Source: Patescibacteria group bacterium (lineage in GTDB: Bacteria > Patescibacteriota > Minisyncoccia > Phycocordibacterales > JAACPR01). From it: a stretch of 51,824 nucleotides of DNA. Where the stretch lies: the NCBI GenBank assembly GCA_022711495.1, contig JAKLEX010000001.1, positions 502,882 to 554,705 of the forward strand, read 5' to 3'. A program made the position numbers and the translations under genes. The notes beneath the pieces are model-generated. The model had not been told where the DNA came from. It was given only the letters and a program-made list of their open reading frames with translations, and ran no database searches. Shown in pieces: positions 43,710 through 46,232 of the stretch (position 1 is the stretch's first letter; each line of letters begins with the position of its first letter).

Positions 43710-43919
43710 CTTCTATTCCTATGCAGAAGGACTCTTTCTTCGCCCTTTTCTTTTAAAAAATAGGGCGTGTGGGGCTGGTCTCTTATTACCCACAATGGAC
43801 TAATAATGCATTACTGCATTTTAGGTAGCTTCTAGTGTAACTAACATTTTATAGGCTCTATTTACTATAAACACCTATAACCGTCCCAGTCCTAGAGAAT
43901 TCACATTTGTAAATTCTCT
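43710..43919 (-). other. 210-nt insertion at 23S position 1931; degenerate/minimal group I intron
   Basis: Exon ...CCUAAGGU | AGAG...AGAAG | AGCGAAAU; terminal G, R-like AAGAGACCA, S-like GAAGAAAGAGUCC, P8 GCCCU/AGGGC; no recognisable P/Q elements. Confidence 0.8.
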
Positions 43920-46232
43920 ACCTTAGGACCGTTATAGTTACGGCCGACATTCACCGGGGCTTATATCAGTCAGCACCAAACATTTTAGAAACGAATTTCT
44001 TCGCGCCCAAAATGTTTGGCACCGCCGATATTTGACCTTCCGGCATTGGTCAGGTGTCGCCCTCTATACATCATCTTACGACTTCGCAGAGAGCTGTGTT
44101 TTTGGTAAACAGTCGCCAGGGATTCTTTAGCTGCGGCCCCATAACTTAATACAGGGCAGGCCTTATCGCTAACTTACGGCCGCTTTTTTGCCGAGTTCCT
44201 TGAGGACCTCTCACTCGTTCGCCTTAGTCTTCTCGACCAAACTACCTGTGTCGGTTTACGGTACGGATTGTTTTAAATTAAGCTTAGAAGTTTTTCTGGG
44301 AAGCCTTTTTTATTCTGTCTCTCTTGGCGAACCGCAAGATTCTGATATCGAATCGGCCTGATGTCTTCCGGATTTTCCTAGAAGACAGCCTCTCGACTTC
44401 AACCCAAATCCAATAATGGGCAGAACATAATAGACTCCGTCACTCCATCGCATCTAAAACAAGTACTGGAATATTAACCAGTTATCCATCGGGTTCGGCT
44501 TTCGCCATCCCCTTAGGACCGACTAACCCTTCGCTGATTGTCATTGCAAAGGAACCCTTAGTTTTTCGGCGTGCGGGGTTTTCACCCGCATTGTGGTTAC
44601 TCGTGCCAACATTCTTACTTCATAACGCTCCACCATGGGTCACCCCTTTGGCTTCAACGCGGATATGAATACTCTCCTACCGCTCGCACTTTTCCGAAGA
44701 AAAATACAAGCCCTCAGCTTCGGTACTATACTTAGCCCCGATTATCTGCGGCGCGGAATCTCTTGACGAGTGAGCTGTTACGCTATCTTTAAATGATGGC
44801 TGCTTCTAAGCCAACATCCTCGTTGTATAAGAAATTCCACCTCCTTAAGTGCACTTAGTATAAATTTTGGGACCTTAGCTTGAGATCTGGACTGTTTTCC
44901 TTTTGACCGACGAACCTTAGCGCCCGTAGTCTTACTGCCAAGCTCTAACTTTGGGTATTCGGAGTTTGGTAGGCGAGATGAGATTTCTCCCTATTCTAAC
45001 CTTCCAGTGCTCTACCCCCCAAAGGAACACTTGACGCTATACCAAAATATATTTCGGAGAGAACCAGCTATTTCCAAGTTCGATTAGCTTTTCACTACGA
45101 CCCACAAGTCATCCGAGCGAGTTGAACAACACACCGGTTCGGGCCTCCTCTGATATTTCTATCAGATTCACCCTGCTCATGGGTAGATCACTTGGTTTCG
45201 GGTCTGATACGTTATACATTTGTTCGCGCTATTAACACTCGGTTTCCCTAAAGCTCCGTCCCATAGGACTTAGCTTGCAAAACGCATCAACTCGTTGGCT
45301 CATTCTTCAATAGGCACACCGTCGAGGTATTGCTACCTCTTCGATTCCTTGTAGACATATGGATTCAGGTCTATTTCACCGCCCTAATCGGGCTACTTTT
45401 CACCTTTCCCTCACGGTACTAGTTCACTATCGGTCTAAAAGAATATTTAGCCTTGCCGGTTAGTTCCGGCAGCTTCACCCGAGCTATTCGTGTCTCGAGA
45501 TACTCAAGAGCTGAAACAAAAGAGAGAATTTGCTTTCATCTACAGGACTATTACCTTTTGTAGTATTTCTTTCCAGAAATTTCGATTAACAAACTCCTTT
45601 GTAACTCTTCTCGTGCAAGCACGACGTTTCAGTCTTACAACCCTCATCCCCCACCATCTAATAAAAGATAGCTTTTTGGGATAAGTTTGGGCTTCTTCCT
45701 TTTCGCTCGCCGCTACTAAGGAAATATTTCTCTACTAATGCAGAGATTGTTTTCTTTTCCTCTAGGTACTGAGATGTTTCACTTCCCTAGGTTTGCTCCT
45801 TCTGGTCAAGCCAGAAGGTGCCGCACAAAATGCGGCGGGTTTCCCCATTCGGACATCTTCGGATAAAAAGTTGCTATACACTTCCCCGAAGCTTATCGCA
45901 GCTATGCTACGTCCTTCATCGCTTCTTTTAGCCAAGGCATCCACCATACGCCCTTAGATTCCCATTAGGAAATCTAAAAACCACTTAACTTTTCTACTGT
46001 TTGTTTGTGAAAATACAATTTCCTGATTGTATTTACAATTATTCAATTTTCAAATAACAGTCGTCCCGATTTTTCTCATTCCGTACCCAGCATCCCAAAC
46101 TAGTCGCCTAATTCGGGACTCTCGATAAAGAAAGACCGCTTCGTCTGAAGCGGCCAGTTCTCGCGTACGCGTTAAAATCACGTTCAGACTGGCCGTTTCA
46201 AACTTAGATTTTCCCTCATATTTGTAGGAACG

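Follow-up and report, generated by a model that had tools for sequence, protein, structure and literature searches.

A group I-derived intron family without P4-P5-P6 at position 1931 of 23S rRNA in Patescibacteria

The DNA analysed here (the window) is a stretch of 51,824 nucleotides (nt) from a Patescibacteria group bacterium, taken from contig JAKLEX010000001.1 of assembly GCA_022711495.1. Its 23S ribosomal RNA (rRNA) gene is interrupted directly after U1931 by a 210-nt insert, the mini-intron, which is a member of a group I-derived intron family without the P4-P5-P6 domain. The mini-intron is probably a descendant, free of any open reading frame (ORF), of the group I introns of this site (L1931), one that has kept the catalytic half and lost P4-P5-P6, that belongs to a site-specific family of the Candidate Phyla Radiation (CPR)/Patescibacteria, and that is spliced by the usual chemistry.

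Rfam models locate the bacterial 23S rRNA gene on the minus strand, at 45970-42321, and 5S rRNA at 42245-42140. Comparison with the universal 23S sequence, in which ACGGUCCUAAGGU runs directly into AGCGAAAUUCC, sets the insert at 43919-43710 on the same strand, immediately after U1931 (43920) and ending in a G (43710). Its predicted fold is unusually stable (-60.2 kcal/mol, z = -5.07; none of 200 shuffles equals it), and it encodes no candidate protein. A 251-nt search found no match to the Rfam group I model even at E<=10, nor to other plausible Rfam families, and the insert lies below the RF00028 gathering score of 50 bits. Both of its junctions are crossed by unbranched DNA contigs with 0 differences in two Logan assemblies of anaerobic-digester runs, which may include the source sample of the window itself. 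Since these contigs are unbranched, and 103 distinct homologues of the same architecture occur in other genomes, the insert is not an assembly artefact, and no segment was dropped from it during assembly. Its position and architecture are thus confirmed.

The extent of the family was established by scanning species-representative genomes for inserts of any kind, 180-240 nt long, with GGTCCTAAGGT immediately before and AGCGAAATTCC immediately after; structure was not used as a criterion. The scan returned 117 loci, of which 104, nearly all from CPR/Patescibacteria genome bins, share the architecture of the window's insert; a survey of such inserts had been proposed in a preliminary description of this sequence, and the present one yields 103 distinct members, the window included. 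Fourteen loci carry compact canonical group I introns, 186-240 nt long and ORF-less (L006, L020, L033, L038, L039, L059, L077, L088-L090, L092, L101, L113 and L117), in which P4-P6 is obvious, as in ...AUAUGCGGGAAA...CAGAGACU. Eight of the canonical loci come from bins labelled mostly as non-CPR (Chlamydiae, Omnitrophota, Gemmatimonadales, Limnocylindrales, Bdellovibrionales), with L039 labelled Saccharibacteria.

Members of the family share a signature that consists of a hairpin H1, GGACU-R-GGACNG, GCUACCU, P2 with an AGUAAU loop, AGUCC, P3, AGAGACC, P8, AAGAUAGAGUCC, P9 with an AGGAAU loop, and a terminal G; the window intron matches every invariant column of the alignment. A sequence profile of the family (nhmmer) finds one copy per locus, at L1931 only, across ~0.9 Mb of rRNA loci, and matches the window intron once (128 bits, E 9.5e-38). 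The 23S rRNA of the window is at most 83.5% identical to that of any family-bearing relative and its intron at most ~76%, so it represents a further lineage rather than a duplicate. Distances between introns correlate weakly with those between host exons (Mantel r = 0.25; 0 of 999 permutations as high), which fits mostly vertical descent with some transfer. A 267-nt contig from a lake-water metagenome run (X4) aligns to 43575-43838 with 8 differences and 3 gaps; it spans the 3' 129 nt of the intron plus exon at ~96% identity, and thus a close relative of the organism and its intron lives in a lake. In many members (L010, L013, L024, L048, L070 and others), a second insertion lies within a few tens of bases of the mini-intron; around q2038-2060, in the L1917/L1951 region, the paired inserts total ~470-990 nt. 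Homing of an adjoining intron that bears an endonuclease gene could thus also spread a mini-intron that has none.

The secondary structure was specified by hand and evaluated on the alignment of the 103 sequences, with the structure slid by 1-3 columns and 500 shuffles as controls. Standard pairs form in 95.2% of the cells, and the covariation score is 0.455, compared with 0.05-0.07 for the slid controls; none of the 500 shuffles reaches it. RNAalifold, run unguided on the same alignment, recovers H1, P2, P3, P8, P9 and a helix between intron and exon, and no helices beyond these. Reading the minus strand from the first nucleotide of the intron, the 11-bp hairpin H1 (43919-43894) abuts the 5' splice site, and all 10 of its counted pairs show compensatory changes. 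It is followed by two GGAC modules. The first, GGACU (43892-43888), forms the long-range helix A with AGUCC (43801-43797); two of the pairs change in a compensatory manner, columns 73/241 being G-C in 89 members and U-A in 8. The second module lies within G-GGAC-G-G (43887-43881), which is complementary to CGGUCC(UA) of the 5' exon and is described further below. The segment that separates this module from the guide is variable (23-77 nt across the family, without conserved structure), and in the window it holds a hairpin, UUAUAGG...CCUAUAA (43880-43849), that is specific to this sequence. The internal guide GCUACCU (43829-43823) and the P2 hairpin with its conserved AGUAAU loop (43822-43802; 7 of 7 pairs compensatory) then lead into the 3' strand of helix A.

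Downstream of helix A lies the part of the insert that corresponds to the group I core, and its helices follow the group I order of P3, P7, P3', P8 and P7'. The 5' strand of P3, UGUGGG (43794-43789), covaries with CCCACA (43773-43768) at all 6 of its pairs. Only UAAUAA (43788-43783) links it to the 5' strand of P7, GAGACC (43782-43777), which contains the guanosine-binding pocket motif: G138-C191, a bulged A139, G140-C190, A141-U189 and C142-G188 in intron numbering. P7 is invariant in sequence and paired in 95-99 of the 103 members; binding of guanosine by this pocket is predicted from its likeness in sequence. After the P8 hairpin (43767-43741; 4 of 5 pairs compensatory) come joining segment J8/7 and the 3' strand of P7, AAGAAAGAGUCC (43740-43729), where the family consensus is AAGAUAGAGUCC and canonical introns have AAGAUAUAGUCC. 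The P9 hairpin (43728-43711; 4 of 4 pairs compensatory) precedes the terminal G (omega G, 43710) at the 3' splice site, which is invariant in 103 of 103 members. The landmarks of the preliminary description, namely GCUACCU at 43829-43823, P3 UGUGGG/CCCACA, AAGAGACC, P8, GAAGAAAGAGUCC, P9 and the terminal G, are thus where it had placed them. Two other candidate pairings were considered: a continuation of the conserved hairpin UGUUAU/AUAAACA as far as the clamp was rejected for lack of covariation, and a pseudoknot between the P2 loop and AUUACA, plausible by eye in many members, was set aside, as in one entire clade the loop is AGAAAU and nothing complementary to it is present.

The interval in which canonical introns hold P4-P5-P6 is almost empty in this family. 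The stretch that leads from the 5' strand of P3 to the initial G of P7 measures 6 nt in 99 members, 7 in two and 8 in two, whereas the same interval of the 14 canonical L1931 introns contains 51-125 nt that can be removed. Because the P3-P7 gap is only 6-8 nt and the 5' segment is short and variable, P4-P6 is neither present in its usual position nor relocated to the 5' region. The preliminary description had named two pairings that might restore the missing domain. One, UAUAGG/CCUAUA, proved to be the window-specific hairpin; the other used UGGGAC as an alternative P3 strand, a sequence that spans GGAC modules 1 and 2 and whose GUCC partner covaries with module 1. Its reading survives both checks. 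The alternative of a small group I intron that is complete, its helices having been assigned wrongly, is rejected by the covariation, the short P3-P7 gap and the RNAalifold result.

Kinship with canonical L1931 introns was examined with a covariance model (R1) that was trained on the 14 canonical introns alone, after removal of their P4-P6. All 61 positions of R1, which run from P3 to P7', align with the window intron (43794-43729; 19.0 bits, E ~0.002 in 51.8 kb); the model sets the P7 of this intron against the canonical P7, and it matches the expected place in 49 of 50 relatives. As a positive control, run on one locus only, the Rfam group I model gives 82 bits for the 186-nt canonical intron of L039, with the P4-P6 columns filled. 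Together with covariation, the P3-P7 gap and RNAalifold, the R1 alignments bear out, at the level of the family, the proposal of a group I P3-P7-P8-P9 half with guide and terminal G and without P4-P5-P6. The mismatches reported in distal P7 (GACCAA/AUAGAGUCC) are present as well. They are no sign of co-degeneration with the lost domain: the same variant occurs in L101, which is canonical and has P4-P6, so it is ancestral variation and not decay. L101 may be close to the ancestral type of the mini-intron family.

The mini-intron is very probably spliced out with exact ligation of the exons. Two activated-sludge metatranscriptomes (X25 and X26) contain 61% and 49% of the sampled words of the organism's 23S stretch. 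Ligation of the exons of this gene would join CCUAAGGU to AGCGAAAU. In X26, a 375-nt contig is identical over 366 nt to 43344-43709, the 3' exon, and continues with ACCTTAGGA; on the RNA strand it reads UCCUAAGGU followed directly by AGCGAAAU..., that is, UCCUAAGGU joined to AGCG. This is the exact ligated junction for which a search of RNA reads had been suggested, and it falls immediately after the terminal G. The depth of the intron is 0 in both runs, compared with ~13 for the adjoining exon, and words of the intron are absent from every RNA run in the index searched. Wastewater complementary DNA runs (X27-X30) added no information on splicing. RNA runs for L008 gave only rRNA fragments of 30-60 nt that are not assignable to the organism. 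Further downstream, the gene carries a second insertion, at L2593 (43046-42623, minus strand, 424 nt), with its 5' splice site after 43047 and a G (42623) at its end; it scores 36.5 bits with the Rfam group I model, below threshold. This L2593 intron is present in both X25 and X26 with 0 differences, at a depth of ~3 and with one contig crossing its 3' splice site, and so the strain in the RNA samples carries at least the L2593 intron. Its persistence in RNA reflects slow splicing, a stable precursor or DNA carry-over.

Four invariant segments of the intron are complementary to invariant rRNA, and they suggest how splicing could proceed without P4-P6. On the 5' side, GGAC(N)G (43886-43881; GGA invariant in 103 of 103 members, C in 102) faces CGGUCC (1920-1925) and would serve as a 5' exon clamp, with 96.4% of the cells paired. 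The stretch of 5' exon proposed as its partner, C1920-A1927 (43931-43924), is the 3' strand of helix 69 in mature rRNA, as in the E. coli 23S structure. The guide then contributes ACCU, which pairs with exon AGGU as P1 (99.5% paired), and GCU, which pairs with AGC of the 3' exon as P10 (100%). Finally, the P9 loop AGGAAU (43720-43715), invariant and paired in 99% of cells, is a putative 3' exon clamp complementary to AUUCCU (43703-43698; 1938-1943); both 3' partners lie in the first nucleotides of the 3' exon (43709-43698). The preliminary description had already noted an 8-bp pairing of intron and exon. An exon clamp is likely, but not through the first GGACU, which covaries with intron AGUCC; the exon partner is likely to be the second, invariant GGAC(N)G, the same helix that RNAalifold picks. 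The substitution of U-A for the U.G wobble at the splice site, also claimed earlier, extends to the whole family: P1 can form, but U1931 faces A in 103 of 103 members, whereas by inspection a G lies opposite U1931 in 14 of 14 canonical introns. Loss of the wobble is coupled to that of P4-P6.

From these elements, a mechanism can be proposed. The parts retained would be the P3-P7 pseudoknot with its guanosine pocket, J8/7, P8, P9, the terminal G and the P1/P10 guide, and the chemistry would be the usual two-step, guanosine-initiated transesterification. Positioning of the substrate, for which P4-P6 and J4/5 normally read the U.G wobble, would be taken over by extra pairing to the rRNA. In the 5' exon, the clamp GGACNG and the guide ACCU would between them bind the final 12 nt; in the 3' exon, the same role would fall to P10 (GCU:AGC) and to the P9 loop (AGGAAU:AUUCCU). 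Hardly any linker separates helix A, the clamp helix, P1 and P2, whose strands follow directly on one another, and 2-4 nt lead from helix A to P3; thus arranged, the four helices may meet in a four-way junction that has the 5' exon among its four strands. The strongest form of this proposal, put forward tentatively as a possibility somewhat short of even, is that the family is a widespread natural class of group I ribozymes that self-splices without P4-P6 and the U.G wobble, the exon-containing four-way junction and the P9-loop clamp replacing P1 docking. If so, the host rRNA is a structural part of the ribozyme, and the intron, by sequestering the 3' strand of helix 69, might time the folding of that bridge region.

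Several points weigh against descent with conserved chemistry. Catalysis by the insert RNA is deduced from sequence, and engineered deletions of P4-P6 are weakly active. The exon-intron pairings show no covariation, and they cannot, because their rRNA partner is invariant. R1 gives the window only a modest score, which is equalled by one probably spurious match elsewhere. (This match, at 7875-7931 on the minus strand with 19.1 bits, consists of two hairpins and then UUAAGAUUUUGUCC; it is probably due to chance, because the J6/7-P7 block is deleted in its alignment.) Contig coverage of this rRNA in the RNA runs is patchy, 43963-44087 and 42321-42606 also being zero, and therefore the zero depth of the intron is by itself weak evidence. 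The junction is found in one Logan contig from activated sludge, the intron DNA comes from anaerobic-digester samples, and a near-identical strain without the intron could be the source of the junction. Finally, P4-P6 has been described as a universal scaffold (PMC6257700), and 70 of 73 relatives carry another large 23S insertion, which leaves room for help in trans.

This last point leads to the explanation that the P3-P9 half is active only with a P4-P6 scaffold that another, canonical group I intron in the same pre-rRNA supplies in trans, here L2593 (43046-42623). P4-P6 is said to have been supplied in trans to the Tetrahymena ribozyme by Doudna and Cech in 1995, and L2593 intron RNA or its precursor does persist in the RNA runs. 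Coverage of the 23S gene is sufficient in 73 family-bearing cases; an L2593 insertion accompanies the mini-intron in 58 of these, and in 70 at least one further large insertion (at least 180 nt) is present at sites in the 3' third where introns recur. The corresponding numbers are lower, 21 and 26, in 36 control CPR-like 23S genes whose 1931 site is uninterrupted (Fisher p = 0.024 for L2593 and p = 0.0007 for any other insertion, in a comparison that mixes two collections and with statistics that ignore phylogeny). The excess, though real, is modest; ~58% of CPR-like 23S genes have an L2593 intron in any case, and the P4-P6 of any donor is already engaged in its own core. Moreover, L008 and L040, with complete or near-complete 23S sequences, carry the mini-intron as their sole large insertion, which argues against an obligate partner intron. 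Complementation by L2593, an option raised in the preliminary description, is thereby weakened, despite the frequency of other insertions, and we consider it unlikely.

A somewhat less unlikely explanation, though still a minor one, is that the insert is no longer a ribozyme: its fold would present the splice sites to an endonuclease and an RtcB-type ligase, or a dedicated protein would replace P4-P6. The scaffold domain and the U.G wobble are both gone, and the extensive intron-exon pairing would set the two splice sites side by side. Group I introns do lean on proteins such as CYT-18 and maturases. CYT-18 stabilises cores that lack P5abc (PMC6257700). However, a purely enzymatic route leaves unexplained why the P7 pocket motif, J8/7, the terminal G and the P10 register are invariant in 103 members, and the intron encodes no candidate protein; the version with a protein cofactor overlaps with descent from L1931 introns and does not compete with it. 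Far less probable is that the insert is kept as an expansion in mature 23S rRNA, or is cut out by an RNase III-type activity without ligation, the junction coming from an intron-less strain. In its favour, short inserts of uncharacterised nature are numerous in CPR rRNAs (PMC11270868), and the samples that gave the RNA junction differ from those that gave the DNA. Against it, the junction contig is identical to the organism over 366 nt, the same run contains the organism's own L2593 intron without differences, and no RNA run contains words of the mini-intron. Site 1931 lies between helices 69 and 71 at the subunit interface, and the ends of the insert are separate local hairpins, H1 and P9, rather than the long terminal stem of intervening sequences. 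The tolerated expansion proposed earlier is thus contradicted by the ligated junction in RNA. Descent from L1931 group I introns, with splicing by the usual chemistry, remains the best explanation.

P4-P6 is a central model for RNA folding, and a natural family of more than 100 distinct members does without it under clear structural selection. The family resides in an essential rRNA gene, usually single-copy in CPR bacteria, and its splicing appears to be accurate. It would set the true lower limit of what catalysis in the group I ribozyme class requires and offer a ~200-nt system in which to study substrate docking rebuilt from exon pairing. It also accounts for part of the "uncharacterised short insertions" that break the annotation of, and primers for, CPR rRNA; such inserts are currently miscounted because Rfam misses them.

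Two other features of the locus were observed. The rRNA genes of the window (29383-45970, minus strand) are arranged as 23S, 5S, ~9 kb of other sequence, 16S (33253-31758) and a transfer RNA gene (29456-29383), an unusual layout in which 16S is downstream of, and apart from, 23S-5S. In addition, a hairpin upstream of helix 69 (43962-44087, minus strand) is longer than elsewhere: DNA contigs of other organisms have 37-39 nt in place of 72 nt in the window. This stretch has zero contig depth in both RNA runs though the neighbouring exons are covered, which could be assembly drop-out, a strain difference or processing.

Among known systems, the canonical L1931 introns are the closest. They share with the mini-intron the insertion site, the order P3, P7, P3', P8, J8/7, P7', P9 and terminal G, the J8/7-P7 motif AAGAUA[U/G]AGUCC and a GCUA... 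guide with P10 to AGC, and L101 also shares the P7 variant GACCAA/AUAGAGUCC. Unlike them, the mini-intron has 6-8 nt in place of 51-125 nt and hence no P4-P5-P6, has U-A instead of U.G at the splice site, has H1, helix A and the exon clamp between the 5' splice site and its guide, a distance of ~90 nt, shows a conserved pairing of the P9 loop with the 3' exon, and goes undetected by RF00028. Other L1931 introns include those of CPR bacteria that bear LAGLIDADG genes, at the site called 23IS7 (for example, the 691-nt I-ShaI intron; PMC11270868), and those of Thermotoga (Nesbo and Doolittle 2003, as cited in PMC11809585).

Laboratory deletions of P4-P6 resemble the mini-intron in that the P3-P9 half alone carries the active site, and they are weakly active under forcing conditions. 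The mini-intron differs from them in that its lineage is a natural one, is maintained by purifying selection and has additional modules that bind the exons. P3-P7 and P5-P4-P6 have been called "universally conserved", with the catalytic centre in P3-P7 and P4-P6 as scaffold (PMC6257700), and a minimal catalytic domain is attributed there to Ikawa et al. 2000. No natural group I introns without P4-P6 were found in Rfam or in the literature searched, with many subscription papers outside its reach.

The remaining comparison is with the short insertions of CPR rRNA genes. A survey that typed introns with Rfam (Tsurumaki et al. 2024, PMC11270868) left uncharacterised those inserts that were short, ORF-less and without a match, and for some sites it proposed intervening sequences of the RNase III type; such insertions are also ascribed to Brown et al. 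2015, as cited in that paper. The mini-intron departs from an RNase III-excised 23S intervening sequence in that its ends form the local hairpins H1 and P9 and its exons are joined in RNA. It is found in the same organisms and genes as the uncharacterised insertions and, like them, is short, ORF-less and without an Rfam intron match. Unlike them, it can now be assigned a fold supported by covariation, an origin among group I introns and a ligated RNA product.

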